This document shows, one piece after another, positions 3,016-53,200 of a stretch of DNA of 64,000 nucleotides. Origin of the DNA: Minisyncoccota bacterium (GTDB lineage: Bacteria > Patescibacteriota > Minisyncoccia > Phycocordibacterales > UBA9973); the NCBI GenBank assembly GCA_036405895.1, contig DASWWS010000001.1, positions 71,864-135,863 of the forward strand. Direction: 5' to 3'. Each line of letters begins with the position of its first letter. Positions within the stretch are counted from its first letter, which is position 1. The position numbers and the translations under genes were made by a program. The notes beneath the pieces were generated by a model that had not been told where the DNA came from, did not search any database, and saw only the letters and a list, made by a program, of their open reading frames with translations.

Positions 3016-3537
3016 ATGAAAAACCGCGGATTCACTTTAATCGAACTCCTTGTCGTTATTGCAGTTATTGGCATTCTTGCATCAGTGGTGATGGCAAGTT
3101 TAAACAGTGCTCGAGTGAAAGCCCGAAACGCGCGAAGGACAAGCGATATAAAACAACTATCGAATGCATTTCATCTAGGGCTTGATGGAACCGGGTCACT
3201 TCCAAGCAGTAATGGCACGTGGGCATGCGTCAGTGCAACGTGTTATGACGGATGGAGCGTACAAGCCCCTGTTGCTGCAGTCGATACCTATCTCGCACCA
3301 TATCTTCCTACAAAGCCATCGGACCCAGTGGGAGGGTCCCGCGGATATGGCGGGTATTTATATCTTAGTGCTTGGGTAGGGAGCGTTCGCTATAACGGAC
3401 TCACCTATCCTGCAGGAGCATACCTTTATTGGAATGTTGAGATGCCTGCAACAGAAAGTTCATGCGCTCCAGGTGGAATTTTGAGCTTTGGCACAAGCGG
3501 AACCTATGCCTCTTGTATGCTCCAACTTAATACATAG
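3016..3537 (+). CDS. Type IV pilin-like protein (prepilin-type N-terminal cleavage/methylation domain), paralog 1
   Basis: MKNRGFTLIELLVVIAVIGILASVVMASLNSAR class III signal. Conserved Cys pair (WACVSATCY) and YLAPYLPxKPSDPVGGSRGYGGYLY block shared with the paralogs at 3793 and 11711. Confidence 0.8.
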   Translation: MKNRGFTLIELLVVIAVIGILASVVMASLNSARVKARNARRTSDIKQLSNAFHLGLDGTGSLPSSNGTWACVSATCYDGWSVQAPVAAVDTYLAPYLPTKPSDPVGGSRGYGGYLYLSAWVGSVRYNGLTYPAGAYLYWNVEMPATESSCAPGGILSFGTSGTYASCMLQLNT

Positions 3538-3574: not shown

Positions 3575-3661
3575 GGAGGATTCGCATAGCGGTCTAGTGC
3601 ACCATGTTGGAAACGTGGCAGGGTAGTAATGCCCTCGGGAGTTCGAATCTCCCATCCTCCG
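3575..3661 (+). tRNA. tRNA-Ser (anticodon GGA), type II with long variable arm
   Basis: Folded by hand. Acceptor GGAGGAT/ATCCTCC; D-stem GCAT/GTGC; anticodon stem CCATG/CGTGG with loop TTGGAAA (anticodon GGA); long variable arm CAGGGTAGTAATGCCCTCG; T-arm GGGAG-TTCGAAT-CTCCC; discriminator G. CCA is not encoded. Confidence 0.75.
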
Positions 3662-3792
3662 CAAAAATAGGAAGTCATCAAAGATGACGACCATATTTTT
3701 GCGCAGTGCATTATAAGGAGCCTTAACGACTATATAATGCCTCCGCAAAGCCTGAGCGATTCGAATCCCGTACCTTCTGTTATAATAAGGTA

Positions 3793-4314
3793 ATGAAAAA
3801 CCGCGGGTTTACCCTCATTGAACTTTTGGTAGTCATCGCGGTGATCGGCATTTTGGCAAGTGTTGTGATGGCAAGTTTAAACTCTGCGAGAGTGAAGGCC
3901 CGTAATGCTCGCCGAAGCAGCGACATCAAGCAGCTCTACAATGCCTTTCAGCTTGGTCTTGATACTACAGGAGCGCTTCCTAATAATGGAGCAGCATGGT
4001 CATGTGTGAGCGCAACGTGCTATGAAGGGTGGAGTGGTAACACAGCGCACGCAACAGTGGATGCATATCTTGCACCGTATCTTCCCAGCAAGCCGTCCGA
4101 CCCAGTTGGCGGAAGTCGGGGGCATGGAGGATATCTTTATAATGTTGCATGGCCCGGGAGTGTTGCATATGACGGCTACACATTTCCTGCAGGATCATAT
4201 ATCTACTGGCTCCCTGAAGCTCCGCTCGGGCCCAACTCATGCGCACCAGGGCGATTGTTGGCAGTTGCTTCGGGTGGTAACTACGCAGCATGCATGCTCC
4301 AGCTAGATCGCTAA
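3793..4314 (+). CDS. Type IV pilin-like protein, paralog 2 (tandem to 3016-3537)
   Basis: The first ~50 aa are near-identical to paralog 1. The C-terminal domain is divergent but keeps the same Cys positions. Confidence 0.8.
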   Translation: MKNRGFTLIELLVVIAVIGILASVVMASLNSARVKARNARRSSDIKQLYNAFQLGLDTTGALPNNGAAWSCVSATCYEGWSGNTAHATVDAYLAPYLPSKPSDPVGGSRGHGGYLYNVAWPGSVAYDGYTFPAGSYIYWLPEAPLGPNSCAPGRLLAVASGGNYAACMLQLDR

Positions 4315-4392: not shown

Positions 4393-7305
4393 ATGCAATA
4401 CCACTTTTTTAAAAAACTTTTTTATGCACTGAGTATTCTCGCGATAGTATTTTCCGCAACTTCGCCTGTTGTTTTTGCGGCTCCGGGCGTACCAAACATT
4501 GTCAACTATCAAGGAAGGCTTACTGATAATGCAGGCAGACTTCTTGGTGGAAGCGGCACCAATTATTATTTTCGTTTTTCATTGTGGACTACTCCTACGG
4601 TAGGAGGCGGAAGCAAGCTGTGGCCTGCTGGCCAGCCGGGCACGGTAACTACAAACGTTGTCGATGGGGTGTTTAATGTAAACATTGGCGACACCGTAAA
4701 CGGCTATCCTGATGCGCTCGATTACAATTTCAACGATAGTGATGCGGTGTACCTACAAATCGAAGTATCAAGCAACGGATCTTCATTTGAAACACTTGGT
4801 CCTCGCCAGCGCATCGTTTCGAGTGGGTACGCGATTAATGCGCAGACGGTCGCTGGTCTTGCTCCCGGAACTAGTGCAAACAATATCCTCACGCTCGGCG
4901 CAGACGGAGAGATAGTGCTTTCAAGCACTGGCGTTTCAACGCTTGGGGATATTGCTGCGGGAGTCATTTCAGCCGGTACATGGAATGGGTCTGCTATTGA
5001 AGACACATATTTTGTGAAGACAGGAGATTGGACGGGGTTGTTTGACGGAAACGAGGGAAGCTATTATTTGGACGCAAACAATCTCACAAACTTTGATACA
5101 CGCATTGCAACCGCAGTCGCAAGCCTCACCACCGACGACATCGCAGAGGGCGACAACAATTTTTATTTCAGCAACACGCTTGCGCGCGGAGCGCTTTCGG
5201 CGGGGAGTGGTATAACGTATGACAACACGAGTGGCGTCATTTCAAACAGTGGAGCGCTTTCATTCAATACGCGAACAGGGGACATCACGCTTGTTTCCGG
5301 CGACGTGACGGACGCGCTCGGCTTTGCGCCAATGAACCCATCAGGAACGACGGCGCAGTATTTCCGGGGAAACGGCACGCTTGCAACATTTCCAACAACA
5401 GTGTCATCGTTTACTAACGATAGCGGGTTTATAACAGGCAACCAAACGATTACTCTTTCAGGAGATATTTCAGGGTCGGGCACCACCGCAATCACTACTG
5501 CCATAGGTGCAGGGAAGGTGACCAATACCATGCTGGCAGGCTCTATTGCAGCATCAAAACTTGTTGGTACTGATATTGTCACTGTTGGGACAATCGGGGC
5601 GGGTACATGGAATGGCACAGTAATTACTCCTGCATATGGTGGAACAGGAGTGAGCACTATTACGGGAATCGTAAAAGGAAACGGTACCTCGGCATTTACG
5701 GCTGCAGTTGCCGGTACAGACTATGAAGTCCCTTTGACATTTTCGACCGGGCTCACGCGCTCTACAAATACAATAACAATTGATAACACTGTGGTGACCC
5801 TGACAGGGAGCCAGGCACTTTCGAATAAGACTGGGAATATTTCACAGTGGACCAACGATGTCGGATATGCGACAGGGGGCGGAACTGCTTCTGGAACAAA
5901 TACCGGAGACATTACGCTTGGAACAATTGGTTCATCTCCTAACACAAGCGGCGCAAGCCTGGTAGGGCAAGTACTGACCTTGCAGCCCGCAGATGCAACG
6001 CGCGGAGGAGTGTTGACGGCAACGGCACAGGAGATTTTAGGAGAAAAAAAATTCCTCAATCGAATCGTCATTGAAAAGTCAGTCGACTCGTCTTTTATTG
6101 CAAACTCTACAACCGGGCGCTCGGTGGCAGTGGTGTCTGGCGCATTGAAGTCATCGTTTCTTTTTGATAACGGCGGGCCTTTCTCAATTCAAACCAATAC
6201 AAAAGCAAATGTTAACAACGGAACGCCGAGCGGTGTTTCACTTCTTGAGCTCAGTGCCACAGGGGATATGTCAATCGGTACGACTACTGCAGCTGACCAG
6301 CCGCGCCTCGATGTTCTTGTAGCAACTGCAAGTATTACCACTGCAAGCCGTACTGTTATACGCGGACGCAACGCTGGCTCGTCATTTGTCACTTCAGGAC
6401 AAGCAAAGACAAACTATATCGCCGAGTTTATCAATACTGCCACTCGAAGTACCGGTGCAAACAATCTTACCAATGTGGCGCTCTATGCTTCTGCAAGCGG
6501 GGCACAGGTAAACTACGCGGGTATTTTTGCGGCAGGGAATGTGGGTATTGGGGATGTGACCCCGGACTACACGCTCGACGTGAAGGGGACAATTTGTCAG
6601 GACACTGATTCAGACGAAACCTGTGACGGGTCGGTTACTTCTGATGCGCGATTAAAAACAAATATCGAAACTATTCCTTCGGCCCTTGAAAAAATCAGAC
6701 AGCTTCGAGGGGTGTACTTTGATTGGGACGAAACGAACAGCCATACGGCATTTCTTGGACGCGGGACTCGGCAGGTAGGAGTAATCGCGCAGGAAATCGA
6801 AGCGGTATTTCCTTCGCTTATTTATCGAGACAGCAGCGGGTATCGAATGGTCGACTATCAAAAACTCACCGGGCCGTTGATTGAGGCGGTAAAAGAGCTT
6901 GATATACAGGTCCAAGCAATTCCTGTATATGAAGACGAAACATTCACAGAAAAAATTGCTGACTTTTTGCGAGGTATTGCCGAGCGCGGAGAAGCGATTA
7001 TCGATACGGTCCGCGCAAAGAAATTGTGCGCAGAAGACGTGTGCATCAACCGCGACCAGCTCCAAGAGATGATTGAGTACATCAACAACCAACAAGAACA
7101 GTCTTCCGGAGGATCTTCATCGAATCCTCCAGTAGATGAAGAAATTCCGCCAGGCGATGCAGAGCCTGAAGGAGATACTGTGCCGGAAGGGGGAGAAGAT
7201 ACTCCGCCTGCTGAAGAAGAGCTGGTACTGGAAGAAACACCCGAACCCGAACCTGTTCCCGAAGAAAGTCCTGAACCAGAACCTGAATCACCTCCAGTCG
7301 AATAA
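4393..7305 (+). CDS. Secreted tail-fibre-like surface protein with a C-terminal intramolecular chaperone auto-processing domain (peptidase S74-like) and an acidic Pro/Glu-rich tail
   Basis: Signal peptide. N-terminal IVNYQGRLTD...LW...GVFNVNIG motif. Long Gly/Thr/Ser-rich beta-type repeats. TSDARLKTNIETIPSALEKIRQLRGVYFDWDE...VGVIAQEIEAVFPSLI...GYRMVDYQKLTGPLIEAVKEL matches the S74 chaperone-of-endosialidase signature. The last ~70 aa are PE-rich. Confidence 0.75.
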   Translation: MQYHFFKKLFYALSILAIVFSATSPVVFAAPGVPNIVNYQGRLTDNAGRLLGGSGTNYYFRFSLWTTPTVGGGSKLWPAGQPGTVTTNVVDGVFNVNIGDTVNGYPDALDYNFNDSDAVYLQIEVSSNGSSFETLGPRQRIVSSGYAINAQTVAGLAPGTSANNILTLGADGEIVLSSTGVSTLGDIAAGVISAGTWNGSAIEDTYFVKTGDWTGLFDGNEGSYYLDANNLTNFDTRIATAVASLTTDDIAEGDNNFYFSNTLARGALSAGSGITYDNTSGVISNSGALSFNTRTGDITLVSGDVTDALGFAPMNPSGTTAQYFRGNGTLATFPTTVSSFTNDSGFITGNQTITLSGDISGSGTTAITTAIGAGKVTNTMLAGSIAASKLVGTDIVTVGTIGAGTWNGTVITPAYGGTGVSTITGIVKGNGTSAFTAAVAGTDYEVPLTFSTGLTRSTNTITIDNTVVTLTGSQALSNKTGNISQWTNDVGYATGGGTASGTNTGDITLGTIGSSPNTSGASLVGQVLTLQPADATRGGVLTATAQEILGEKKFLNRIVIEKSVDSSFIANSTTGRSVAVVSGALKSSFLFDNGGPFSIQTNTKANVNNGTPSGVSLLELSATGDMSIGTTTAADQPRLDVLVATASITTASRTVIRGRNAGSSFVTSGQAKTNYIAEFINTATRSTGANNLTNVALYASASGAQVNYAGIFAAGNVGIGDVTPDYTLDVKGTICQDTDSDETCDGSVTSDARLKTNIETIPSALEKIRQLRGVYFDWDETNSHTAFLGRGTRQVGVIAQEIEAVFPSLIYRDSSGYRMVDYQKLTGPLIEAVKELDIQVQAIPVYEDETFTEKIADFLRGIAERGEAIIDTVRAKKLCAEDVCINRDQLQEMIEYINNQQEQSSGGSSSNPPVDEEIPPGDAEPEGDTVPEGGEDTPPAEEELVLEETPEPEPVPEESPEPEPESPPVE

Positions 7306-8612
7306 TGACTTCCTTTCCGTATAAAAAAAGTATCATAGCGTTTGCCTTAAGCATATCTCTTGGAGTACTGATGCATCCCGAGAATGGCTTTGGTATTACG
7401 CCAACCTCTTCAAGTTACACTGTACATAACCCGGTCATTACCAGTGGCTTTGCCTCAATGGCATCCGGAAATTTTGGATTAGGCCAGTCATTTGGTCAAT
7501 CGGTTATCGGCAAGTCGCTTTCATCATCATTTGCAGTGTGGAGCGGATTTCAATATTTTGCCAGTGCGGGAACATTCACCCTTTCCGGGGTGGGGGGATC
7601 AAGTCAGGCGCAACTTTCTTGGACAATACCCGAGGTATTTAACGGAGCAGTTATTTCCGGGTATGAAGTGGGAATCGGGACAACATCGGGCTCGTATACG
7701 TTTCAGGATGTTGGGAATGTCACTTCGTTTACAAAAACAGGGCTCAATAACAATACGCCGTACTATTTTTTAGTGAAAGCGCACACTGCTTCAGGTGCAC
7801 CATTGTCGTTTTCCAATGAAGTGAGTATTACTCCAACAGGAACTATTACCCCGCCAGGCGGCGGTGGTGGTGGAGGGGGAGGAGGCAGTTCAACGGGGAC
7901 GGGGAGCGTTATTGTTTCAGGAATCGCATATCCGGGAGCGACAGTCGTTATTCTTAAAGACGGCAAGATTGAAACACAAACCACTGCCGACCCCGGAGGC
8001 GCATTTAACGTGCTTCTCTCAAGCCTTCGCGCAACCCACTATGCAATCGGCGTGTATGCCGAGGATACTGCAGGAAGAAAATCTCCTCCATACAGTTTTC
8101 CGGTCACGCTTGCAGACCAAGTCACAATTACTATTGCCAACGTATTTCTTGCGCCAACTATCGGCGTTGATAAGTCGGTCGTTGCGCAAGGAGAGCCGAT
8201 TGGAATTTTCGGTTCTTCCGCACCTAATACGCAGGTGAATATTTATGTGCACTCCGCGCAAGAGTTTGTGGAGAAGGTGACTTCAACTACCACCGGTGCG
8301 TGGTTTAAGCAGTTCGACACCACCTTTCTTGAAATAGGAGACCATAGTACATTTTCTCGCGCTGTGCTTTCTGACCAAGTAACGAATACCAGTGTGACAG
8401 TACCGTTCGTTGTGGGTACAACATCAGTTCCGATAGAGACGCTCGGTCGGAGCGACTTGAACAACGACGGGCGCGTGAACATTACCGACTTTTCCATGCT
8501 CTTGTACTATTGGCAAGGAACCCCGCCGCCCGGTTCAAAGGTGGATATTATAAAAGACGGCATTGTTAACAGTACAGACCTCTCAATCATGCTCTATGAT
8601 TGGACTGGATAA
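7305..8612 (+). CDS. Secreted FN3-domain protein with a poly-Gly linker and a C-terminal dockerin (two Ca-binding repeats)
   Basis: The start overlaps the previous stop (TAATG). FN3-like block (GYEVGIGTTSGSYTFQDVGNVTSFTKTGLNNNTPYYFLVKAHT). G10 linker. C-terminal DLNNDGRVNITDFSMLLYYW ... DIIKDGIVNSTDLSIMLYDW matches DxNxDGxVNxxD twice. Confidence 0.7.
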   Translation: MTSFPYKKSIIAFALSISLGVLMHPENGFGITPTSSSYTVHNPVITSGFASMASGNFGLGQSFGQSVIGKSLSSSFAVWSGFQYFASAGTFTLSGVGGSSQAQLSWTIPEVFNGAVISGYEVGIGTTSGSYTFQDVGNVTSFTKTGLNNNTPYYFLVKAHTASGAPLSFSNEVSITPTGTITPPGGGGGGGGGGSSTGTGSVIVSGIAYPGATVVILKDGKIETQTTADPGGAFNVLLSSLRATHYAIGVYAEDTAGRKSPPYSFPVTLADQVTITIANVFLAPTIGVDKSVVAQGEPIGIFGSSAPNTQVNIYVHSAQEFVEKVTSTTTGAWFKQFDTTFLEIGDHSTFSRAVLSDQVTNTSVTVPFVVGTTSVPIETLGRSDLNNDGRVNITDFSMLLYYWQGTPPPGSKVDIIKDGIVNSTDLSIMLYDWTG

Positions 8613-8616
8613 AATT

Positions 8617-9729
8617 ATGAAAATACTTTTGCAAAAAATTATCAGTACAATTATTTTTAGTGTATCTCTCTGCGTTCTTTTCGCAACGCCAAGCAGTGCT
8701 GCCACCCTTTCAGCAAGTGCGGCCCAACAGCAAGTGTATGCGGGAGATACGTTTGCAGTGGAATGGTTTCTCGATACAGAAAATCAATCAATCAATTTGA
8801 TTGACGCAGTGCTAACGTATTCATCAGAAACACTAGAAGTCATTGAACTCTCAACGGGTGTTTCCTCGTTTACGCTGTGGCCAAACCAGCCATATGTTCT
8901 CCGTGCTGGAACTATTAGCCTTACCGGAGGTATCCCTGCCGGAATTACAGGCGCGCGCGTGCGAGTACTGCGCACCGTATTTCGCGCAACTGCTCCCGGA
9001 ACTGCGACCATTGCCACCGCAGCTCCTTCACAGGTACTGCTTAACGACGGAATTGCAAGTGCACGGCCTCTTGGTGTGACACCTGTGGTTTTTGAAGTAC
9101 TGCCGGGCGACAGCGCGCCGTACAGCATCTACTCAACCACGCATCCGCTGGAAAACGTCTGGTACAAAAATACGCATGTGGAAATTGATTTTACACAAAT
9201 AAAGGGAGAAGAATACAGCTACAGCTTCAGCACAAATGCAGAACTTATTCCCGACGCTGTGCCGGACAAAGCAAGGACGCCGATTGTGTACGACAATATG
9301 CCAGACGGCGTGTATTACTTTACCCTGGCAAGCCGCTCTGGTGGCGGAGCGTGGCACGAAGCGCGCGTTTTTCGCGTACAGATCGATACCCAAGCTCCCG
9401 AATTTATTGATGCAAACATAGCGACAGATGAATCTCTGTTTGAAGGAAAAGCATTTGCAACATTTGCGGCAGTGGATAAGACTTCCGGTATTGAAAAGTA
9501 TGCAATAAAGAGCGGATGGTTTGGAACGTATAAGACTGCGACAACACCGTTTGAACTTCGCCGGCCGATTGTGGGAGATACGACATACATCCGTGCAATT
9601 GATAGGGCAGGAAATGTACAAACAACTGCGATCAATTTCCCTGGATACAGTAGACCGTTGTATGCGTATGTTGTTATACTATTGATACTAATAATTGTCG
9701 CTCTACGAATTCGACGAATACATTCATGA
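8617..9729 (+). CDS. Membrane-anchored cohesin-like domain protein
   Basis: Signal peptide (start moved to the ATG at 8617; the alternative upstream start is 8563). The N-terminal ~150 aa follow the cohesin-like pattern (ATLSASAAQQQVYAGDTFAVEWFLDTENQSINLIDAVLTYSSETLEVIELSTG...GITGARVRVLRTVFRATAPGTATIA...VLLNDG). Second beta-rich domain. C-terminal TM helix. Confidence 0.55.
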   Translation: MKILLQKIISTIIFSVSLCVLFATPSSAATLSASAAQQQVYAGDTFAVEWFLDTENQSINLIDAVLTYSSETLEVIELSTGVSSFTLWPNQPYVLRAGTISLTGGIPAGITGARVRVLRTVFRATAPGTATIATAAPSQVLLNDGIASARPLGVTPVVFEVLPGDSAPYSIYSTTHPLENVWYKNTHVEIDFTQIKGEEYSYSFSTNAELIPDAVPDKARTPIVYDNMPDGVYYFTLASRSGGGAWHEARVFRVQIDTQAPEFIDANIATDESLFEGKAFATFAAVDKTSGIEKYAIKSGWFGTYKTATTPFELRRPIVGDTTYIRAIDRAGNVQTTAINFPGYSRPLYAYVVILLILIIVALRIRRIHS

Positions 9730-10511
9730 AAAAAATTACGTTCTCTTTTTTGATAGTTCTTATTGCATGGTTTTGTGCAAGCGCTCCTGCAACAGCAGCT
9801 ACGCTTGTTGTGACTCCTCCGAGCGCGAGTGTTACCGAGGGTTCGACATTCTCCGTGAGCGTGCGAACTGATACGCAAGGACAGTCAGTCAATGTTGCCG
9901 AAGCGACTGTCGGGTTTTCAACAGACACCCTTGAAATAGTGAGCGTCAGTCCCGGCGCTACGTTTACCCTTCAGACCCCTGGCTCGCCAAGTAAAACCGC
10001 ATCAACGGCGTACTTTTCTGCGGGGATTCCTTCGGGCTACAACGGCTCGGCCGGGATGCTGGGCCGTATTACCTTCCGCGCAAAAAAGGCAGGGAAAGCA
10101 ACAATCAGCGTAACGTCCGGGAAAGTACTATTGAATGATGGAAATGCAACAAATGCGCTCAATGGAACTTCTGGTTCCGTAATCACTATCACGCCAAAAC
10201 CGGCTGTTGAACCGACAACTCCTATTAAAGAACCAGAAACCGCTGTTGTACCTCCTTCAATAGAAACACAGCCAGTAGTGGAAATGCCGATTGTTGTTAC
10301 TCCAACGCCTGTTCCAGAACCTGCGACCACGACTATTAGAACAAAAGATCTCTTCACTCTTATTTACATACTGATCGGCATTATCTTTATCCTTCTCGGG
10401 GTAATAATCGCACTCATTGCCGTGATTGCTCATAGAAAACCACTACCTCCCGTTGTACGAAAACCTCGCGCGAAAAAAGCAAAAGAAGAAGTACGGCTTT
10501 CGGATATCTAA
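9726..10511 (+). CDS. Membrane-anchored cohesin-like domain protein (paralog of 8617-9729)
   Basis: ATGA overlap with the upstream gene. Signal peptide. The domain is homologous to the previous gene's (ATLVVTPPSASVTEGSTFSVSVRTDTQGQSVNVAEATVGFSTDTLEIVSVSPG ... KVLLNDG). Pro/Thr linker, a C-terminal TM helix and a basic tail. Confidence 0.55.
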   Translation: MKKITFSFLIVLIAWFCASAPATAATLVVTPPSASVTEGSTFSVSVRTDTQGQSVNVAEATVGFSTDTLEIVSVSPGATFTLQTPGSPSKTASTAYFSAGIPSGYNGSAGMLGRITFRAKKAGKATISVTSGKVLLNDGNATNALNGTSGSVITITPKPAVEPTTPIKEPETAVVPPSIETQPVVEMPIVVTPTPVPEPATTTIRTKDLFTLIYILIGIIFILLGVIIALIAVIAHRKPLPPVVRKPRAKKAKEEVRLSDI

Positions 10512-10512
10512 T

Positions 10513-11001
10513 ATGAAGAACCGAGGATTCACTCTTATCGAACTTTTGGTGGTAATCGCAATCATCGGTATCTTGGCGTCAGTTGTTTTAGCTTCTCTTA
10601 ACAGTGCAAGGAAAAAAGCGCAAGACACAAAAATCAGAGCAGAGCTAAAGCAGTTAGCAACTGCCCTTGAATTCTATTTTGATAAATACGGTACCTATGT
10701 TGTTGCTGCTAGTGGGTGGAATGACTGTGGATGCGGGTATGTGACAAGCGATGCTGGACCAAGTGGAAGGACGATAGTACAAGCTCTTGTTGCAGAAGGA
10801 TTCATGTCAACAGATTTTGATGAGCCGGGCGGCATCAATTATATGCTCTATAATTGCGGTACCGAGCGTTATGCGCTCTCTGCAACCTTAAACAACCCCA
10901 CCGCACAGGATATTGCGTATGCTCAAACGACTTGTAATGCAACCGGAGGAAACGGCACCTATTCCCATTATGGGAAAAACTTTTCCATAGAAAAGCTCTA
11001 G
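10513..11001 (+). CDS. Type IV pilin-like protein, paralog 3
   Basis: MKNRGFTLIELLVVIAIIGILASVVLASLNSARKKAQDTK... Start moved to the ATG at 10513, two bases after the previous stop. Confidence 0.8.
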   Translation: MKNRGFTLIELLVVIAIIGILASVVLASLNSARKKAQDTKIRAELKQLATALEFYFDKYGTYVVAASGWNDCGCGYVTSDAGPSGRTIVQALVAEGFMSTDFDEPGGINYMLYNCGTERYALSATLNNPTAQDIAYAQTTCNATGGNGTYSHYGKNFSIEKL

Positions 11002-11023
11002 AAAACTGCGCTATACTATATAT

Positions 11024-11704
11024 ATGAAAAAAACAATCACTTGGATTATTGTACTTTTGGCTATTGGGGCGGGAGCATTTTTGTACTTGACTCGACCGGT
11101 AAAGGTAGAGGATAGCAGCACTACAGCGGGAGTTGAATCCGAGCTTTCTGCGGACAATAAAAAGGGAGAAACACTCTATCGAATCAACAAAGAGCAGTCG
11201 ACCGCAAAGTTCACGATTAAAGAAGATCTTCGCGGTGAGCCATTTACTGTTGTAGGAACAACCAATGATATAAGCGGGGATGTTGTTCTTAAGACGGAAG
11301 GAAAGGCAGAGCTTACGATTGGAACAATTCTTATCGACGTTCGCACCTTCAAAACTGACAATGCAAATCGGGACGGCGCAATCAATCGCCTCATTGTGCA
11401 GACCGGTACAGAGGGTCATGAATATGCAGTACTTACGAACACTTCTGTTTCCGGTCTTCCTGAAACGATTACTGTAGGCACCCCATTTACGTTTGAGGTA
11501 ACAGGAGACCTAATGCTTGCAGGAATAAAGAAACCGGCAACCTTTGCAGTAACTGCAACACAGAACGAGGGTTCATTGTCGGGAACATTGAGCTCAACCT
11601 TGAAGCGCTCTGACTACAAACTCGTTATTCCGAACATTCCGTTTGTTGCAAATGTGTCTGACGACTTTGTTGTCAGCGCGGACTTTGTTGCAGTAGCGCA
11701 ATAA
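11024..11704 (+). CDS. Secreted YceI-like domain protein
   Basis: Signal/TM. The core ...KFTIKEDLRGEPFTVVGTTNDISGDVVL...IDVRTFKTDNANRDGAINRLIV... resembles the YceI family. Confidence 0.55.
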   Translation: MKKTITWIIVLLAIGAGAFLYLTRPVKVEDSSTTAGVESELSADNKKGETLYRINKEQSTAKFTIKEDLRGEPFTVVGTTNDISGDVVLKTEGKAELTIGTILIDVRTFKTDNANRDGAINRLIVQTGTEGHEYAVLTNTSVSGLPETITVGTPFTFEVTGDLMLAGIKKPATFAVTATQNEGSLSGTLSSTLKRSDYKLVIPNIPFVANVSDDFVVSADFVAVAQ

Positions 11705-11710
11705 TACATA

Positions 11711-12232
11711 ATGAAAAACCGAGGCTTCACCTTAATAGAGCTCCTTGTTGTTATTGCAGTGATTGGCATTTTAGCATCTGTTGTTTTAGCGAGCTTGAAT
11801 AGTGCTCGCGTTAAGGCTCGTAATGTTCGTCGCAATGCGGACATCCGGGAATTGCAAAGTGCCTTTGCTTTGGCAGCAAGCGATACAGGATCGATGCCGA
11901 GCTCTGCCGGAAACTTTGAGGGGTGGGCATGCGTCAGTGCTACATGCTATCAAGGATGGAGTATATATAGTGCCAACAGCACAGTGGATACCTTTATCGC
12001 AACAACGATGCCGTCAAAACCTATTGACCCTCCGGGCGGTCGCGGATACGGCGGATATTTGTACCATAGTTCATCATTGGGAGCCACTAACTATGATGGA
12101 AGTGTTACCACTGCAGGCCCCGTATTACACTGGCTGTTGGAGCCACCCTACAAAGTTGGGATGTGTGGTGCCGGAAATGCAAACGCTGTAAATTCAAACT
12201 ATGTCGCCTGTGTTATTTCGATAGGAAGATAA
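11711..12232 (+). CDS. Type IV pilin-like protein, paralog 4
   Basis: The same N-terminus plus the WACVSATCYQGWS and PPGGRGYGGYLY blocks shared with paralogs 1 and 2. Confidence 0.8.
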   Translation: MKNRGFTLIELLVVIAVIGILASVVLASLNSARVKARNVRRNADIRELQSAFALAASDTGSMPSSAGNFEGWACVSATCYQGWSIYSANSTVDTFIATTMPSKPIDPPGGRGYGGYLYHSSSLGATNYDGSVTTAGPVLHWLLEPPYKVGMCGAGNANAVNSNYVACVISIGR

Positions 12233-12233
12233 T

Positions 12234-12268
12234 AAAAAAACCCACCGTTTGGCGGGTTTTTTTATTAT
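12234..12268. terminator. Bidirectional intrinsic terminator (A-run, GC hairpin CCCACCG/GGCGGG, T-run) between convergent genes
   Basis: aaaaaaacccaccgtttggcgggttttttt. Confidence 0.7.
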
Positions 12269-13377
12269 TGGGTTTTGAAAGTAATAACAACAAGTTCAGG
12301 CGAATTGAATGTGCGGAATGGGGGACCGAATGTTCCAACTCCGCTCGTGGTCAAAACCTGCATGGTATTGAAGAGATTGAGTCCGTAATAATATGCTCCG
12401 TATATTGGGCGGACGACATAGGTCATTGGCCAAAACTGTCCGTTGTGGGTATGACCCGAAACCATAAGGTTCACTCCGGCATTTTCAGCTTCAGCCAGAG
12501 AAGTAGGCGGGTGATTGATAAGGATGGCAGTTTTATTTTTGTCGAGAGAAAGATTCTCTAAAGCACTGTTTGCAGCAGTCTTACTCTCTGCATTGGTACC
12601 ATAATAGGTAAGGCCCGCAATCTGTACGCCCTTATGTTCAACCATTCTGTTATCAAGCACGGTTACGCCTGCATTTCGCACGGAGTTTACAAACATTTCA
12701 TAATCGCCGTATGTTTCATGATTTCCTGGTGCGTAAAATACTGGAATTTTTTCTGCAAGGCGCTTCCAGGAAACAGTAATGGGAGCAGTTTCAACTCTCG
12801 GTCCGTCATAAAAGTCTCCGGCATGAAGGACGAGATCGGGGTTGAGCGTGAGAATGTTATTGATAACTTTATCGGAAAACTTGGCATGGTTTACTAGCCC
12901 GAAGTGCGTGTCAGAAACAAGCACTGCACGCACACCATTCCACTCTTGCGGCAGGTTCGCAAGTGTTACCGAATATTCGACCGTTACGAAAGAACGGGAC
13001 TGAATAAGGCCTGTAATGCCAAGTAGTAGTGAGATGCTTAAAAAAGTAATTGGGATAAATAGTGGAAGTGCGGTTTTTGCAAGAGAAAAGCCAAGCATTA
13101 CCACCGAAAGGGCAAGTCCTCCAAGAAAGAGATAAAACCCAAAGCCCGCAATAATATTTATTGCACTATAGAGGGTTGGATGAAGCGATTGAGCGCTTCG
13201 GCCCATTGTCATGCCAAGAATAAAGCCCCCAAGGACAAGGAGGCCAGACGCCATTGCAGCTTTTGACCAGGCAGGAGAAAGGCGAAATGCTACAGCGTAC
13301 ATTTTCCCTGAGAGAATAATAAGGCCGATAAATCCGGCGAATACCAAGATACCGAGGAGCATTTTTGTTGAAATCAT
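12265..13377 (-). CDS. Membrane-anchored metallophosphoesterase (calcineurin-like)
   Basis: N-terminal TM helices followed by the GDxHG / GDxxD / GNHE / GHxH motif series (VLVSDTHFG, HAGDFYDGP, APGNHE, VSGHTHNGQ). Start trimmed to MISTKML (ATG at 13377) because the ORF-track extension overlaps the divergent helicase gene. Confidence 0.75.
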   Translation of the reverse strand: MISTKMLLGILVFAGFIGLIILSGKMYAVAFRLSPAWSKAAMASGLLVLGGFILGMTMGRSAQSLHPTLYSAINIIAGFGFYLFLGGLALSVVMLGFSLAKTALPLFIPITFLSISLLLGITGLIQSRSFVTVEYSVTLANLPQEWNGVRAVLVSDTHFGLVNHAKFSDKVINNILTLNPDLVLHAGDFYDGPRVETAPITVSWKRLAEKIPVFYAPGNHETYGDYEMFVNSVRNAGVTVLDNRMVEHKGVQIAGLTYYGTNAESKTAANSALENLSLDKNKTAILINHPPTSLAEAENAGVNLMVSGHTHNGQFWPMTYVVRPIYGAYYYGLNLFNTMQVLTTSGVGTFGPPFRTFNSPELVVITFKTQ

Positions 13378-13429
13378 GTGTGTCAGTATAGCAGGAAAAG
13401 GATGCGAAACAGCGTGATACAATGAAGCT

Positions 13430-16384
13430 ATGGATACCTTTGGAGAGGCGTATAAGACCTTAAACACCAAGCAAAAGCAGGCGGTGGATGCTATTGAAGG
13501 GCCGGTCATGGTGATTGCGGGCCCGGGTACCGGCAAGACACAGGTTTTGAGCCTTCGCATTGCGAACATTTTAACCAAGACCGATACTCCGCCTGACGGC
13601 ATACTGTGTCTGACATTTACCAATGCCGGCGTCAAAGCGATGCGCGAACGCTTGATGCGCTATATCGGACCCGCGGCCCTTCGTGTGAAGGTAAACACTT
13701 TTCATAGTTTCGCACTTTCTTTAATCGAAGAGTTTTATCACGCACTCGATTATGATATGGTGCCGATGCTTTTGGAAGACACCTCAACGGTGGCACTGTT
13801 TGACGAATTGCTTCACATGCGCGAGTGGCACCATGTGCGCCCCCGCTCGAACCCTTCGATGTACTTTCGCGATCTCAAATCCCTCATTTCAACTCTCAAG
13901 CGCGACCGTATTACCCCCGCTGCTTTTATTGAAAGCATAGAGCGCGAAATGGAGACACTGCGAAATGATCCTGCAAGCATCTCTTCTCGGGGAGAGACAA
14001 AGGGGCAGATAAAAAAAGACGTTGAAAAGAAATTGGAGAGCTTTGAGAGAAGTCTTGAAGCCGGAGCTTTTTATGCACTGTACGAAGAAGTGAAAAACGA
14101 ACGCGGGCTGATTGACTACAATGATGTGTTGGAGCATTTGGTAAAGCTTGTGGAAGTATCAGACGATGTGCGAGACACGATTCGGGAGCGATACTTGTAT
14201 GTATTGGTTGATGAGCACCAGGATTCAAGTGGTATTCAAAACGAATTCTTGCGGTTGGTATGGGCCGATACGGAACAACCAAACCTCTTTGTGGTGGGGG
14301 ATGATAGGCAGCTGATTTATGGATTTGGCGGTGCATCGCTTTCGCACTTTGAAGCATTCACGCGCGGCTTCGGTGAAGTTGCGCTTATTACCCTTACCGA
14401 GAACTACCGCTCCACACAAACAGTATTGGATATGGCAGAGGCGCTCTTGCAGAGTGATATGGCCGAAGGCAAGCTTACGGGAAATACGCTTGAAGCTCAC
14501 TCTCTGAAGCTGGTTGAAGCAAGCTATCCTCGTGACGAAATTATTCTCGCCGGCCTTTTCATGCAGGAAAAAATAGCAGCAGGGACAGACAGTAATGACT
14601 GTGCAATCTTGGTGCCCAAAAACCGCCAGGTAAAAAGTGCAATGCAAACGCTTCGCGATATGGGATTGCCGGTTGCTGCGAGTACAACATTGCAGTTGTT
14701 TGAGCTACCCGAAGCGCAGTCCTTGTTGAACGTGCTTCGCGTGGTTGCGAATCCGTTTGACAGTGTTTCACTGGTCCATTCGCTCCTTGACCCGCTCTCG
14801 AGCATCCCACCCCTGATTGCACACCGCTTTCTTTCTGCTCACAAAAAACCAACACTTGAAACACTCCTTCAGTCTGAAGATGAACCAGTACACAAATGGG
14901 CGATGAGCATTTCTGTATGGCTTTCTGTTGCACAGACAACAGACGCATACGGGCTTATTCAGCACATTGCCGAAGACTGTTTTCTTGTGGCAGAAGCGGG
15001 GGACGACGTAGTACGTCGGCGTGTTGAAATTGTCCGTACATTTTTGCATCTTGCGCTTTCGCAAAGCGAGCGTGGGACAAAGGTAACTGTCAGCGACTTT
15101 CTTTCATTTATTGCGCGCTTGGAAGAGTACAACGAAGACATTCCGCTTGCGGTGTTTGGTGCAGGCCATGGAATAAAAGTCCTCACATTACACGGCTCAA
15201 AAGGGCTTGAATTTGATGCGGTATGGATTGCGCATATGGACGAGCGCTCACTGATGGGAAGCAAGCGTCAGGCTTTTGCACTGCCTGAGGACTTATTAAA
15301 AGAAGAAGCGCTCCACGACGAATCGGTAAAAAAGCGCGAGCTCTATGTTGCAATCACTCGCGCAAAGCGGTTTTGCACTATTTCTTCTGCACGCCATAGT
15401 TATAGTGGGGCAGACCAAGTGCTTGCAAGCGTAGTGTCTGCACTACCAAGCGAACTCTTTGAAAAAAGCACAGCCGAAGAATCAGAGGCTCTTATTCTCA
15501 GTACTGCCCCGCGCTTGTACATCGACGCAGTACCGCCTGAAAAAACCGAAACGCATGATGTATTGCAAGAATTGGTGCGGGAAGAATATGCAAAACGCCG
15601 CGTATCGGTGACGATGCTCAATAACTTTTTTGAATGCACCTGGAAGTGGTATTTTAGAAACCTTCTGCAATTGCCGGAGCCAGAAAACGAGTCTCTCCAT
15701 GTTGGTACGGTAGTGCACGGCGCGATTGAGGCAGTGCTTAAAAACGGCGTTGTTGGTCTTGAAGAAACAATAGAGACGCTCGCGCTTCGCGAGGCACGCT
15801 ATGACGAAGTGCATGCAAGCCGGCTGGTTGCTCAAGCAACGCCGATTGTGAATTCATGGATTAAAACCACGCTTCCGGATATTGTAGCGCCGTATAGTAC
15901 AGAGCGTGCACTTTCGTATGTTGACCCCGACTTCGCGCATCTTACGTTGTTTGGAAAAATCGACTTGGTGGAAGAAATCATTACCGACGAAGTGCGCGTG
16001 ACAGACTGGAAAACAGGGAGTACAAAAACAAAGGCCGACATTGAAAAAGTCGATGAAGAGGGGCGAATGTCAGCGTATCTCCGCCAGCTCGCGATGTATT
16101 CGTATCTGTTGCAAGGCATGACGCGCGACAATACAAGTGTGTCAGAGTCCCGATTGGTCTTTCTTGAAGCAAAGGCGGGGGATAAGAACGCCATTGTATC
16201 TCGGCGCATCGCAGGAGAGGAGGTTGCAAAATTGCGCCAGGATATCCGGGATTATGATGAATTGGCAAAAACAGGAGCGTGGATGGCGCGTCCGTGCCGC
16301 GCGAAACTCTATAGAGAGGGGGACGTGTGCGAATACTGCGCTATGGCCCATAAATACGGGGTTTTACAGCGTATTAGCGAGTAA
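13430..16384 (+). CDS. UvrD/PcrA-family DNA helicase fused to a C-terminal PD-(D/E)XK nuclease with a Cys4 (Cas4/AddB-like Fe-S) cluster
   Basis: Walker A (AGPGTGKT). UvrD motifs (DEHQDSS, VVGDDRQLIYGF, TENYRS). C-terminal FFECTW (Cys1) ... IDLVEE...DWKTG (D/E-K) ... YLRQLAMYSYL ... CRAKLYREGDVCEYCAMA (Cys2-4). Confidence 0.8.
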   Translation: MDTFGEAYKTLNTKQKQAVDAIEGPVMVIAGPGTGKTQVLSLRIANILTKTDTPPDGILCLTFTNAGVKAMRERLMRYIGPAALRVKVNTFHSFALSLIEEFYHALDYDMVPMLLEDTSTVALFDELLHMREWHHVRPRSNPSMYFRDLKSLISTLKRDRITPAAFIESIEREMETLRNDPASISSRGETKGQIKKDVEKKLESFERSLEAGAFYALYEEVKNERGLIDYNDVLEHLVKLVEVSDDVRDTIRERYLYVLVDEHQDSSGIQNEFLRLVWADTEQPNLFVVGDDRQLIYGFGGASLSHFEAFTRGFGEVALITLTENYRSTQTVLDMAEALLQSDMAEGKLTGNTLEAHSLKLVEASYPRDEIILAGLFMQEKIAAGTDSNDCAILVPKNRQVKSAMQTLRDMGLPVAASTTLQLFELPEAQSLLNVLRVVANPFDSVSLVHSLLDPLSSIPPLIAHRFLSAHKKPTLETLLQSEDEPVHKWAMSISVWLSVAQTTDAYGLIQHIAEDCFLVAEAGDDVVRRRVEIVRTFLHLALSQSERGTKVTVSDFLSFIARLEEYNEDIPLAVFGAGHGIKVLTLHGSKGLEFDAVWIAHMDERSLMGSKRQAFALPEDLLKEEALHDESVKKRELYVAITRAKRFCTISSARHSYSGADQVLASVVSALPSELFEKSTAEESEALILSTAPRLYIDAVPPEKTETHDVLQELVREEYAKRRVSVTMLNNFFECTWKWYFRNLLQLPEPENESLHVGTVVHGAIEAVLKNGVVGLEETIETLALREARYDEVHASRLVAQATPIVNSWIKTTLPDIVAPYSTERALSYVDPDFAHLTLFGKIDLVEEIITDEVRVTDWKTGSTKTKADIEKVDEEGRMSAYLRQLAMYSYLLQGMTRDNTSVSESRLVFLEAKAGDKNAIVSRRIAGEEVAKLRQDIRDYDELAKTGAWMARPCRAKLYREGDVCEYCAMAHKYGVLQRISE

Positions 16385-25595: not shown

Positions 25596-26774
25596 ATGCA
25601 AGAACACTTTCCTCATTCAGATAGCCACTCTCTCGAATCGCGAATAGATGCAATTGTTGAACGACAGCTGCGTGAAATCGAACTTCAGCAAGAAGGGGTG
25701 CAGCCGGAGCAATTGGCAGTATATCGAGAAAAAGCAAACGAGTTCAAAAAAAGATTACCCGAAATGATGGATGATGAAGCTAAAGAATATTTAGCGGGCG
25801 TAAATGATGAAGAGTTCGGAGCATTAGTATTGCCAGCCCTTGCACGGCAGCATGAAAGAGGAAAAGAACATGTTCCGTTGACGAAAATCCAACTTCAAAA
25901 CATACTTTTATACCGAAAGGTATACGGGTATGGACATCCTGACTTGGAAAAACGAATCGAGCAGCATCCCATGCCTACAGCTGCAGAACTATTGCTTGGC
26001 TGCTACGCCGAACAACTTGAAGAACAGACTCGTGATGCTGTATTACTGATGAGAAAAAAAGGATATGATACTGTTCAATCTGGTTTTCACGATACATTGA
26101 AAGGTTCGCAATTTTTTGATATTTATGAAGCGAATCAAACAATGGTACCCCAAGAAATCATTGATGAAATGAAGAGTCGGTTTGGAGTGGATGTAACCAG
26201 TAAACGTCACAAGTCATCCGAGAGGACGGATATTGATCTCGTACCTACGGGGTTCAAAGATATTGCGGACTGGAAGGAAACCCTTAATCACTTCGCTGCA
26301 ATTATGCCGACGAAAGAAGAACAAGGTTTGGGTCAATACGGTATGGGTGTTGATTTTATCTATGATGCTATAAAGACATATAAGAAGGAGGATATATTGG
26401 AAACTGCTGAAACAGATCAGCAGCGTGTGTTAGTTGAGCGTTTATATGAATGCAAAAATAAGGAAGAGGTGATTTTGTTGTTACATAAAGAATCTGATTC
26501 GGCTGAACAAAGAGTGGTAGAGGAAAGACTAAAAGAAGAAGCTAAAAAAGATTTCTCGCCGGATACTGTTGAAGCTATTAATCAAATAATAAGTGAATTC
26601 ATCTCAGCATCTTTTGTTATCGATAAAGAAGATATTGAAGCCGGGTTGCAGATAATCCGGGATCAGTGCACTCACATTGGAGAAATTTATACTGACGATG
26701 CGTCTCATGGCAAGCTTTTCGCAATAATTAATCAAGCGATTCAGTATCTTGAAAACCGCTTGGAGAAAAAATAA
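25596..26774 (+). CDS. Hypothetical acidic alpha-helical protein (392 aa)
   Basis: ORF 4 nt after smc. No GTPase or other recognisable motif, so not ftsY. AT-richer than its neighbours. Confidence 0.5.
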   Translation: MQEHFPHSDSHSLESRIDAIVERQLREIELQQEGVQPEQLAVYREKANEFKKRLPEMMDDEAKEYLAGVNDEEFGALVLPALARQHERGKEHVPLTKIQLQNILLYRKVYGYGHPDLEKRIEQHPMPTAAELLLGCYAEQLEEQTRDAVLLMRKKGYDTVQSGFHDTLKGSQFFDIYEANQTMVPQEIIDEMKSRFGVDVTSKRHKSSERTDIDLVPTGFKDIADWKETLNHFAAIMPTKEEQGLGQYGMGVDFIYDAIKTYKKEDILETAETDQQRVLVERLYECKNKEEVILLLHKESDSAEQRVVEERLKEEAKKDFSPDTVEAINQIISEFISASFVIDKEDIEAGLQIIRDQCTHIGEIYTDDASHGKLFAIINQAIQYLENRLEKK

Positions 26775-50295: not shown

Positions 50296-53200
50296 ATGGA
50301 AAAGAATCACGATATTAACAAATCTTTGGAACACACAGCGCCGGAAGTCGTGCCTGTTGTAGAGGGTGAGACAGTGGATGTAGAGCACGAGCTGGTAGAA
50401 GCACCACAAGAACAAGAACAAGAACCGCAAACGACAGAACAAGAATCAGAACAGGTGCAGCCAGAGCAAGCGGCAGAACCCGTACCGGAATCCGCAGTAA
50501 AGGAGACTAAGAGCCCCGAAGAATTGCAGAAAGAATTTGAAGCCCAAATCAAACAAATCGCTTTTGTAAACGTGGCCCAGCTTGCTGAAAACGAAGCGCG
50601 CGATGTTGCCGAAGAGCGCCTTACCGAGGAGCGCGAAAAGTCTACTGGCGTAAAAAATTTCTTTAAGCGCGTATGGAAGCACAACATTGCGCGAGAGTAT
50701 TACCGCCAAAGAGAAATCGCGGACGTGAAAGATGCGATTTATTCTCAGCAGAATATTTTTGCCGGGGAGGCCTTGGAAAAAAAGAGCCACCAGTCTGCAA
50801 TGGATGCAGTAACCGAGCGTTTTTTGAGCGAATACGATGGCGTGATTCGAGAAGATGCGGGTGAAAAAAAGGCTTTGCTTGAAGAAGAAAACCCGGAGGT
50901 GAAAACGCTGAAGGGTGAAATCACCGAAATGATTAAAGGATATGCCAATGGAAGCATTGATGATGCGACATTTGATGTTGAGCGCGACAGAATCCTTGAG
51001 AGTGTGGGTGCTGTGGGCAAAGAAACGGTGGGTGAAGGCCGATTGTATGCGGACAACCTCAAGCGCGTTGCCGAACAATTAAAGCATGCACTTAATCATG
51101 GCGTATCACTTGAGAATCTTGATATGAAATTTGATCTTAAGGTGGGGCGCGCCGTGTCAGGTGTTAAAACCGAAGCCAATACAAACAAGGTAGACAGGGC
51201 AATTGAGTGGATTAACAAAAAAACAAAAGGGGGAAGCAGTATTCTTATAAATGAAACCACTGTCGCAGCCGGTGTTTCTATTGCGACCGCTTTCGGCGCC
51301 GCTGCACTGAAAGGCGCTGCACGTACTACTGCGCAAGTCGGCGGATTTATGGGGGGAGCTGCGCTTGCCGGCACCATGAGCGCATTTAAGGAAAACAGCC
51401 GCCTTAAAAATGAGCGCGCGCAGCATGCCCGCGACCGCGCAAAAGGGCGTGTGATTGATGAAGATTCTCCGCGCCGGGAAAAGATGGAAGCGTTTCAATA
51501 CAAGACCAAGACAGCGCAAGAGCTTCGCAGCGGACTCCTTTCAACGCTCTATACCGACAATGACCCAAGCAAAGGTATTAGCGAAGAAATGAAGTCGCCG
51601 GAGAAATTCAAGGCTGCCCTTGCCGCACTTGCAGAAGTGGAGGGGCGCATCAGTGTTTCCAATAAAGCGCGCATTGACCTGATTTCTTTTTCTGATGCAA
51701 AGGCGGTTGAAGTTGAGCGAACGGCGCTTGAAATAGAGCATGCCCGCGCAAAGACGCTGCTTCGAAACTATTACGACAGCACTCCTGCAATCAACGAGTC
51801 AATTCGGGAAAAATTTGATTCACTGCTTGCCAAGGACGCCGGCGCATACGAAAAGTCTCTTTTTGATGGAGATCTCAGCGAAAAAGACAAGGCATTTCGT
51901 GCAATGAAGCAAAAAGCCGTGGGCCGCGCATTGGTCAAGGGTGCACTTTCAAGTGTTGTTGTGGGAGGTGTTGTGCAAGAAGGCATGGCATTTGCACAGA
52001 GCAACACGGAAGGATTTGTTGAAGGTTTAACAGTCGGAAATCCGACAGCAGAACATGCAACCCCCCTTGAATCTCTTCGAGTATGGATCTCGGGTAAGTT
52101 CGGCGAGAAGGCGGCAGATGCAGTGGAAGTTTCAAACCTCCATCTTAAAGAAGTGCAGTGGAGCAATCTCAGAGAACACCTTCGTTTTCCAGAAGGAACA
52201 GAACTTACTGAAAATGGGGACGGAAGCGTAACAATCACCCAAGGAGGCACAGTGCTTGCAGACCACATACCGTTTGAGTTTGGAGCCGACCATATTCCGA
52301 CAGCAGAAACGCTTGCATCGCTGAGTGCGCACAAGATTATTCCCGGAGATGTGACGGTTGATTCCATTACAGAAATGATAGAAGGAGCGCCGCTTTCTCC
52401 AAAAGAATATGTTGACCAAAACCTTGAAGATACGCAGGCTATCAAGCGAGACCTGTGGTATGACAACAATACAACAGCGCCTGTATTTGAGAAAAACGAA
52501 TTACAGGCCGACTGGGGCGGAGAAAATGCTACGGGTATTGATGAGAAAGGAAATTATGTATTCAGTACGGCCGAGATGTCCAAAGATGGCTCGACCCAGG
52601 GCGCATTTTCTGCTGATGCAAAAGCACTTGCGGAGAAAGGGGAACTGAAGATGCTTCTGTCGCTCTCCAAAGACACGCAAAACCAAGTGTTTGAAGTTCC
52701 TATCGATGCAAATGGTAATGCTGTTATCGACCCAAACAGCGAAGTGGGCAAGCTATTCTTTACGACAGTGGACGGCAAGGCCGTATTCAACGGAAAGTAT
52801 GCTGAAGTTGCCCAGATAATGAAGGGCGCCGAGGGGGAAGCGGAGCATGTTCGCGTGCTGAGCACTGTTGTTGGAAAAGGAATTGATACGCTGCCCGGAA
52901 TGAAAGAAAGTGTTGTTGAGGAAGCAACCCATGACTTTACCTTCGATACTGCGCCCGCTGACCTGCCGCGAGACACTGATTTGCCGCCGACAATTCCCTT
53001 GGTAGGGCGTATTCCGCTTGAGCCGATGAAAGGACCCGCAGAAGAAAAGAAAGAAGAAAAACCTCTTGTCGATATACCTTCAATGATTCCGACAGCAGAA
53101 CAACCACCAATCGCTCCTCCCGCTGTAACGGTAATGGATGTAGCTCCAGACGGAACATTGATGAAAGAAAATGTGCAAACAGGAGAAAGCGAACCTGTTG

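Follow-up and report, generated by a model that had tools for sequence, protein, structure and literature searches.

The open reading frame at positions 4393..7305 (+) of a 64,000-nucleotide stretch of a Minisyncoccota bacterium genome (assembly GCA_036405895.1, contig DASWWS010000001.1; hereafter the window) raises a simple question. Does a gene whose product carries a phage-type Peptidase_S74 chaperone domain record a lost virus, or does it belong to the cell that harbors it? Sequence comparison indicates that the product is probably a cellular, Sec-exported, trimeric surface fibre of Patescibacteria (Paceibacterota), built on the plan of the MAT fibres of Bdellovibrio bacteriovorus. Its molecular identity as a MAT-like S74 surface fibre is likely, and its biological role is proposed with less confidence. 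The reading that best accommodates the evidence is a cell-surface adhesin that would trimerise, undergo predicted self-cleavage, and anchor and bind in its mature form. NCBI already holds the exact protein under the generic name 'tail fiber domain-containing protein'. Minisyncoccota is the phylum to which the class Patescibacteriia belongs.

The gene starts with ATG and encodes 970 residues, exactly as the initial annotation had delimited it, and the motifs quoted there are present, with SDARLK beginning at residue 750. The Pro/Glu-rich 70-residue tail claimed in that account is likewise found, and the N-terminus reads as the Sec signal peptide that it claimed. Direct reading and hydropathy place the signal peptide at residues 1-29 (4393..4479), where MQYHFFKK (Lys7 and Lys8) is followed by a hydrophobic core (residues 9-28) and VFA|AP. 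The acidic low-complexity tail occupies residues 901-970 (7093..7305, including the stop codon) and contains 29% Glu and 24% Pro, with 24 Asp or Glu, 17 Pro, and no Lys or Arg. The same account described the intervening ~700 residues as Gly/Thr/Ser-rich beta repeats, which is accurate for composition. Self-BLAST found no internal repeats in the protein, and the region is therefore better read as Gly/Thr/Ser-rich fibre modules; these ~720 residues comprise a conserved N-terminal domain followed by shaft modules. The proposed C-terminal order of S74 domain and tail also stood, except that a conserved segment of ~55 residues (846-900) between the two had not been set apart. No paralogue of the fibre was found in the window.

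The S74 domain itself (residues 750-845, 6640..6927), an intramolecular chaperone and auto-processing domain, is borne out by sequence, profile, and predicted fold. Pfam PF13884 (Peptidase_S74) matches residues 750-809 (E=2.4e-16; 60.2 bits, cutoff 22). The C-termini of PHROG tail-fibre families align with residues ~748-842, and weak PHROG matches fall in the shaft. Searches of PDB sequences with phmmer, using full-length and shaft-only queries, returned nothing, so that no solved sequence homologue of the shaft was found there. A profile of the C-terminal region alone, built from an alignment of 28 sequences, matched six solved S74 proteins, including the phage fibres 8jov (1.6e-19), 6f45 (4e-18), and T5 8hqz (3e-10), as well as MyRF 7dc3 (8e-13) and phi29 gp12 3gud (4e-7). 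An AlphaFold2 model of residues 700-900 is confident over the S74 core (residues 749-840; predicted local distance difference test, pLDDT, 85-97). Foldseek ranked the MyRF ICA domain (7dc3) as the best match to this S74 model, with probability 1.0 and E=2e-5, followed more weakly by 3gw6 (endosialidase) and 3gud (phi29), and 356 viral S74 proteins matched it at E<=1e-3. Viral contigs carry genes that reach up to 55% identity to the core; these viral matches end at about residue 840 and lack both the extension and the tail.

Self-cleavage is predicted from sequence between Thr749 and Ser750. In the alignment of 28 C-terminal regions, Ser750, Lys755, Gly796, and Ala799 are invariant. The catalytic motif S750-D-A-R-L-K755 has the form S-D-x-x-x-K, and its Ser and Lys are kept even in the variants STRETK and SSQAYK. 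Were cleavage dispensable, such invariance of the catalytic dyad would be surprising. Experiments on Bd3182 showed self-cleavage at the same SDxxxK motif, which the substitution S782A abolishes (PMC10769870). The domain is released in every characterised S74 protein cited here, and by analogy the fibre may behave in the same way. If cleavage occurs, the extension and tail depart with the chaperone as a 221-residue fragment.

The C-terminal extension (residues 846-900, 6928..7092) is predicted to form a helix (850-864), a beta-hairpin (877-886) bearing Cys879 and Cys884 (KKLCAEDVCINRDQL), and a second helix (887-899), with pLDDT values of 54-78. Searched alone against Pfam and PDB, it gave no match. 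The fibre contains only four cysteines, arranged as the pairs Cys735/Cys744 and Cys879/Cys884, and the loop defined by the first pair ends five residues before the scissile bond at Ser750. The first pair is present in 16 of the 28 relatives and the hairpin pair in 20. Both are missing from all six short-type S74 ends, which finish 91-103 residues past the Ser. This restriction of paired cysteines to long-type C-terminal modules fits folding outside the cytoplasm, where they may form disulfides. The tails of relatives are also of low complexity and differ in sequence, being rich in P/E, P/T/D, or S/T/N (overall P/T/S/E/D-rich), and no DNA tandem repeat of note was found in the tail region of the gene. 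No description of a Cys pair ahead of the cleavage site, a Cys-hairpin extension of ~55 residues, or a low-complexity tail was found, either for the solved S74 proteins or in the MAT paper.

The opposite end of the protein points to a cellular family. Residues 30-165 (4480..4887) form a conserved N-terminal domain, hereafter the N-domain, which is a distant homologue of the Bdellovibrio MAT N-domain and the proposed cell-proximal anchor. Of the 120 best homologues, 49 share it, in every case at the N-terminus, and some of these proteins have an S74 end whereas others lack one. No Pfam family was found for it. In 34 of 35 relatives it matches NCBIfam NF053851 (Bdello_MAT_N), with a best E-value of 1.4e-10, and essentially nothing else. 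Along the 162 positions of that model the fibre covers 71-150 and other relatives cover 4-87, so that positions 4-150 are jointly matched. The domain is predicted to fold as a beta-sandwich for which PDB offers no homologue, in line with the published account of the MAT N-domain (PMC10769870).

Such N-domains are abundant in cells. Profile searches returned 21,542 representative clusters at E<=1e-3, of which 574 reached E<=1e-30. In the best 150 relatives, the domain starts at about residues 25-50, directly behind the leader, in proteins of up to ~5,000 residues. A locus search based on a nine-sequence alignment confirmed 204 loci in cellular contigs sampled as one genome per species. Among the 80 loci listed, nearly all belong to Patescibacteria lineages, comprising Paceibacterota, Parcubacteria groups, Doudna-, Taylor-, Harrison-, Niyogi-, Vogel-, and Lloydbacteria, and metagenome-assembled genomes labelled Saccharibacteria. 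The corresponding search of 2.9 million viral contigs, whose sensitivity is limited to the two peptide patterns used, confirmed none. In the MAT paper, the lineages given in Table S3 as bearing MAT-like proteins are Oligoflexia, PVC, Micavibrio, Myxococcales, the FCB group, and Omnitrophica, with no entry for Patescibacteria (PMC10769870). A literature search for S74, intramolecular chaperones, MAT, dockerins, or tail fibres in Patescibacteria or the candidate phyla radiation found no earlier description.

These comparisons support placing the fibre in a large cellular fibre superfamily that has its own N-domain and is related to the Bdellovibrio MAT fibres. The initial annotation, which saw a domesticated fibre on a cellular protein, stands in its elements and calls for refinement only: the fibre is one member of this superfamily, not an isolated domestication. 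Membership of a large cellular family like the prey-grabbing one of Bdellovibrio makes it a candidate host-recognition fibre rather than a prophage remnant.

Between the N-domain and the S74 end, the protein is mosaic. The Gly/Thr/Ser-rich shaft (residues 166-499, 4888..5889), defined by composition, includes a module of ~75 residues at about 341-420 (5410-5650), with the pattern GNQTITLSGDISGSGTTAITT..KVTN.MLAGSIA.SKLVGTDI..VGTI..G.WNG. This module occurs in 90 of the 120 homologues, at differing positions in otherwise unrelated large proteins. Its sequence is 55-85% identical across those 90 proteins, a conservation far above that of the surrounding shaft; some carriers are annotated with PF19264, and one is named as Bacteroidota. 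Among the same homologues, the N-domain (49), the S74 domain (32), and the shaft module (90) are combined independently. Both tip types can occur at one locus: positions 8001-15479 of locus L012 encode tandem N-domain fibre paralogues, one of 944 residues without S74 and one of 1292 residues with S74, followed by dockerin and cohesin genes.

Downstream of the shaft lies a hypervariable distal segment (residues ~500-660, 5890..6372), a candidate ligand-binding region. Only seven of the 120 homologues match residues 561-745. The closest homologue (P0002) is 85% identical overall, and its identity of 90-100% along the protein falls to 38-55% at residues ~500-660. Across residues 561-714, nonsynonymous divergence (dN) from P0002 is 0.24 and synonymous divergence (dS) is 1.57, compared with a dN of ~0.03 in the N-domain, S74 domain, and extension. 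Moreover, dS differs 20-fold between fibre modules, from 0.08 to 1.6. The drop in identity and the uneven dS point to segment replacement by recombination. Positive selection on the variable segment was considered and is unsupported, as dN/dS there is 0.15; the high dS indicates segment replacement instead.

The conserved pre-cleavage segment that follows (residues 661-749, 6373..6639) is 97-100% identical to P0002 and contains the Cys735/Cys744 loop. A capping-loop-like motif, GNVGIGDVTPDYTLDV, lies at residues 715-730, ahead of the S74 domain, as does the capping loop on the beta-helix of MAT fibres. Over the part preceding S74, the C-terminal profile matches the MAT structures 8ond (Bd2133, 3.6e-9) and 8ojn (Bd3182, 1.8e-6). 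In having a conserved base and a distal part that varies, the protein follows the polarity of both MAT and phage fibres.

The fibre gene also heads a compact run of surface-protein genes. Its stop codon overlaps the start codon of a dockerin gene (TAATG), subsequent reading frames overlap or abut, and no terminator stands out within the run. The first downstream gene (7305..8612, +) encodes a secreted protein with fn3, Big_6, and C-terminal dockerin domains, as assigned by Pfam. The second (8596..9729, +, its start taken from the gene call of the contig) encodes a protein with a cohesin-like N-terminal domain and a C-terminal membrane anchor. It is a paralogue of the third product, with a hydrophobic C-terminus and a weak OmpL47-type match. 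The third (9726..10511, +) combines a cohesin domain (Pfam Cohesin, 30.6 bits), a Pro/Thr/Glu linker, and a C-terminal membrane anchor. In the fibre itself, Pfam matched neither a cohesin nor a dockerin module; these modules sit in the three downstream genes.

Orthologues of all three cassette genes adjoin fibre genes in six of seven homologue loci (L005, L006, L008, L010, L011, and L012), which otherwise differ in neighborhood. Viewed from the dockerin gene, 31 of the 32 metagenome loci that reach 8 kb have cohesin genes next to it. As cohesins are nearly always beside the dockerin gene and the fibre seldom is, the cohesin/dockerin operon appears to be a widespread unit of its own, one subfamily of which repeatedly travels with a MAT-like fibre. 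Such linkage provides a lead towards a candidate anchoring partner and is not evidence of interaction.

Several further features of these loci were recorded. In L006 (6768-14272) and also in L007, the whole cassette of dockerin gene, two cohesin-type genes, and S74 fibre gene lies inside the conserved ribosomal-protein operon between L5 and S8, an unusual site for accessory surface genes. For the dockerin/cohesin operon, 331 relatives are confirmed in metagenome contigs (loci L101-L180), often with three to seven tandem cohesin-like paralogues, for example in L160 and L175. Upstream of another cassette, L008 (4059-7155) encodes two secreted proteins of ~330-350 residues, ending in ...YSTVLTYEMTANY and ...YSTTLTYVATANF, together with a C-terminally anchored protein of 325 residues. 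The first secreted protein is homologous over its N-terminal part to the same part of the dockerin protein of the window (E=3e-16). Presumably, these L008 proteins resemble the WxL-type surface-protein clusters of Firmicutes.

Patescibacteria are generally regarded as monoderm, and Pro-rich, charged C-terminal regions are typical of wall-spanning segments in monoderm surface proteins. The latter point lends some weight to a reversed arrangement, in which S74 would trimerise without cleavage, the extension and Pro/Glu tail would form a wall-spanning, cell-proximal stalk, and the N-domain would be the distal adhesive head. The neighboring cohesin protein has such a linker ahead of its membrane anchor, and the extension and tail accompany the long-type modules of relatives and no short-type end. 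Even so, this arrangement is improbable. The catalytic Ser and Lys are kept in all 28 relatives, the C-terminus carries no membrane anchor, LPXTG, or other sorting signal, and the release of the domain from every characterised S74 protein cited argues for the same outcome here. The conserved N-terminus and variable distal part fit the MAT and phage polarity instead.

A second alternative retains a secreted protein and assigns it an enzymatic role, for instance as a tailspike-like depolymerase that would attack polysaccharides of a host capsule or biofilm, in place of an anchored adhesin. Endosialidase tailspikes were the first proteins in which S74 was recognised, and enzymatic beta-helices are present in several S74 proteins (PMC10769870). 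The distal region of the fibre has no assignable fold, which leaves room for an enzymatic domain. However, no glycosidase, lyase, or esterase family was matched in Pfam, NCBIfam, PHROGs, or PDB sequences, and attachment to the cell is suggested by the MAT-related N-domain and by the linkage to membrane-anchored cohesins. We give an enzyme of this kind only a small chance.

The cassette is also flanked by four prepilin-type (N_methyl) genes, at 3016-3537, 3793-4314, 10510-11001, and 11711-12232, which suggested a role as an accessory or tip adhesin of a type IV pilus. Three of the four are 173-residue paralogues with 68-80% DNA identity over their 5' parts, and two of them bracket a tRNA-Ser gene (3575-3662). 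The closest homologue likewise has a pilin gene immediately upstream, and type IV pili mediate host binding in cultivated Saccharibacteria (PMC11623550). However, no pilin adjoins the fibre in L005, L006, L008, L010, or L011, pilin adjacency occurs in one of the 80 genome loci, and the leader is of the Sec type rather than the prepilin type. Pilin linkage is not conserved among fibre relatives and was rejected, and a pilus adhesin is very improbable.

The wider surroundings of the fibre gene are cellular. Genes of the window encode SecF, LemA, HtpX, prepilins, YceI, an AddA-like helicase, GyrB, ThrRS, SMC, NusB, RNase III, ribonucleotide reductase, SecA, DnaE, pyruvate kinase, and similar proteins, and a PHROG scan of the unassigned reading frames found no phage structural proteins. 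Contigs with the same SecF extend 4.5 kb past the start of the window and add FtsW, PAP2, and SecD. The absence of nearby phage genes claimed by the initial annotation is therefore upheld over both stretches, and the upstream prophage screen, fixed in advance as the test that could overturn its interpretation, was negative as far as the contigs reach. A fibre relative with ~50% identity in aligned parts has the same SecDF-LemA-HtpX ... AddA-GyrB neighborhood. The tRNA-Ser gene lies 730 bp upstream of the fibre gene, and neither att-like repeats near the locus nor a guanine-cytosine anomaly at it were found. A tRNA-bounded island was rejected, as the direct repeats are pilin paralogues only.

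A prophage or degraded-prophage tail fibre lying in the chromosome by chance is contradicted by this context and by an N-domain found in cells only, and is exceedingly improbable: the viral likeness of the S74 core, the PHROG matches to the C-terminus and weakly to the shaft, the NCBI name, and the nearby tRNA-Ser stand against a locus with no phage structural, integrase, or lysis-cassette genes in 64 kb and a further 4.5 kb upstream, with a conserved neighborhood, no att-like repeats, and no compositional anomaly, and against a protein with a Sec signal peptide, needless for phage fibres assembled in the cytoplasm, and an N-domain that the same patterns recovered in 204 cellular loci and 0 viral contigs.

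Elsewhere in the window, positions 53858-57133 encode a protein of 1091 residues that combines DUF5122 beta-propeller repeats with PG_binding_1 at its C-terminus. It strongly matches phrog_5490 (E=1e-83), a family of unknown function, and phage endolysin families match its peptidoglycan-binding end; the gene is probably not of phage type and encodes a surface protein bound to the wall. Two further large reading frames, at 50296-53790 (1164 residues) and 25596-26774 (392 residues), have no Pfam or PHROG match.

Several observations weigh against the fibre as a self-cleaving, surface-anchored trimeric adhesin. The whole case is computational. The N-domain scores of 18-40 bits against NF053851 all lie below the curated NCBI cutoff of 60 bits and hence indicate distant homology rather than membership of the Bdellovibrio subfamily. 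Relative to P0002, dN/dS is below 1 everywhere, including the variable segment. The AlphaFold2 models represent monomers, from which trimerisation can only be extrapolated, and the extension is modelled at low confidence. Linkage to the cassette is not obligatory, as its genes occur in five of 13 genome loci with a complete N-domain reading frame; in most of the 80 genome loci, the sequence stops within the long fibre gene and is therefore uninformative on downstream linkage. From the dockerin side, a fibre gene is present in five of the 32 metagenome loci, each of which ranks with the ~10 closest full-length orthologues. Binding partner, host, and ligand are candidates by inference, and an epibiotic lifestyle is assumed from the phylum.

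Under the preferred interpretation of a MAT-like surface fibre, maturation could proceed as follows. The signal peptide would be cut off after Ala29 upon export. Outside the membrane, three S74 domains would associate and template the trimeric folding of the distal fibre. Lys755-activated Ser750 would then cut the Thr749-Ser750 bond and free the 221-residue fragment, which carries the S74 core together with the Cys-hairpin extension and the acidic tail. Residues 30-749 would remain as the mature fibre and end in a terminal loop that a Cys735-Cys744 disulfide could close. The N-domain would hold the fibre on the cell, and the variable distal segment (residues ~500-660) would bind a ligand, which most probably sits on a host cell surface. 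Candidate parts of an anchoring platform are the dockerin protein and both membrane-anchored cohesins, which are predicted to be co-transcribed.

A more ambitious joint reading can be formulated, which we advance tentatively and consider unlikely in its entirety. MAT-like fibres would be a major and hitherto undescribed host-recognition system of Patescibacteria, the N-domain would dock on the membrane-anchored cohesin/dockerin platform encoded in the same operon, and the recombining distal segment would set host range. The Cys loop, Cys-hairpin extension, and acidic tail would adapt S74 to work after Sec export without a periplasm. The MAT paper leaves the anchor of MAT fibres open (PMC10769870); if true, the joint reading would identify it, at least in this lineage.

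Beyond type IV pili, little is understood of the means by which ultrasmall Patescibacteria locate their hosts and stay attached to them (PMC11623550). Modular, recombining fibres across the phylum would be concrete candidates for host-range determinants, comparable across genomes, and the recurrent link to anchored cohesins and a dockerin offers a testable candidate for the fibre anchor. Moreover, the extension, Cys pairs, and tail suggest how a chaperone of cytoplasmic phage assembly might adapt to extracellular folding.

Among known systems, non-cellulosomal cohesin-dockerin pairs (Peer et al. 2009, cited in PMC10066038) are the closest parallel for the downstream genes. One dockerin and two anchored cohesin-type proteins would constitute a plausible surface docking pair. 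The fibre itself has neither module, and any interaction between it and this scaffold is suggested by recurrent gene linkage. MyRF, the myelin regulatory factor, provides a further cellular use of S74, with trimerisation-dependent self-cleavage in its ICA domain (7dc3). It differs in being a eukaryotic membrane-bound transcription factor whose cleavage frees a DNA-binding trimer, and it involves no fibre, no secretion, and no shared N-domain. Phage S74 proteins, such as the K1F endosialidase (3GW6), T5 pb1 (4UW8/8hqz), phi29 gp12 (3GUD), and S16 gp37 (6f45), share the domain, the Ser-Lys spacing, and the C-terminal position after a fibre. However, they are assembled in the cytoplasm, lack a signal peptide, and attach to virions through N-terminal domains unrelated to that of the fibre.

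The most complete correspondence is with MAT fibres, whose plan combines a signal peptide, a beta-rich conserved N-domain of ~130 residues, and a mosaic trimeric fibre that ends in S74 (13 genes) or in a different tip (8 genes) (Caulton et al. 2024, PMC10769870). The Patescibacteria fibre differs from MAT in its two Cys pairs, its post-S74 extension, and its acidic low-complexity tail. Its N-domain falls outside the curated Bdellovibrio subfamily, a dockerin/cohesin operon is its recurrent neighbor, and it is known from sequence alone. With the S74 subgroup of B. bacteriovorus MAT (Bd3182; NF053851; 8ojn, 8ond) it shares a predicted signal peptide followed by a putative, distantly related N-domain, a mosaic, tip-swapping fibre of ~1000 residues, the capping loop, and the SDxxxK S74 domain. 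Both families include members with and without S74, and in both the genes are chromosomal and non-phage. Cellular S74 fibres have been known since the MAT work of 2024, and the present protein already bears a generic annotation. What is new is the extension of the MAT architecture to Patescibacteria on a large scale, together with an additional C-terminal module bearing Cys pairs and a low-complexity tail, and a recurrent operon link to a cohesin/dockerin membrane scaffold.

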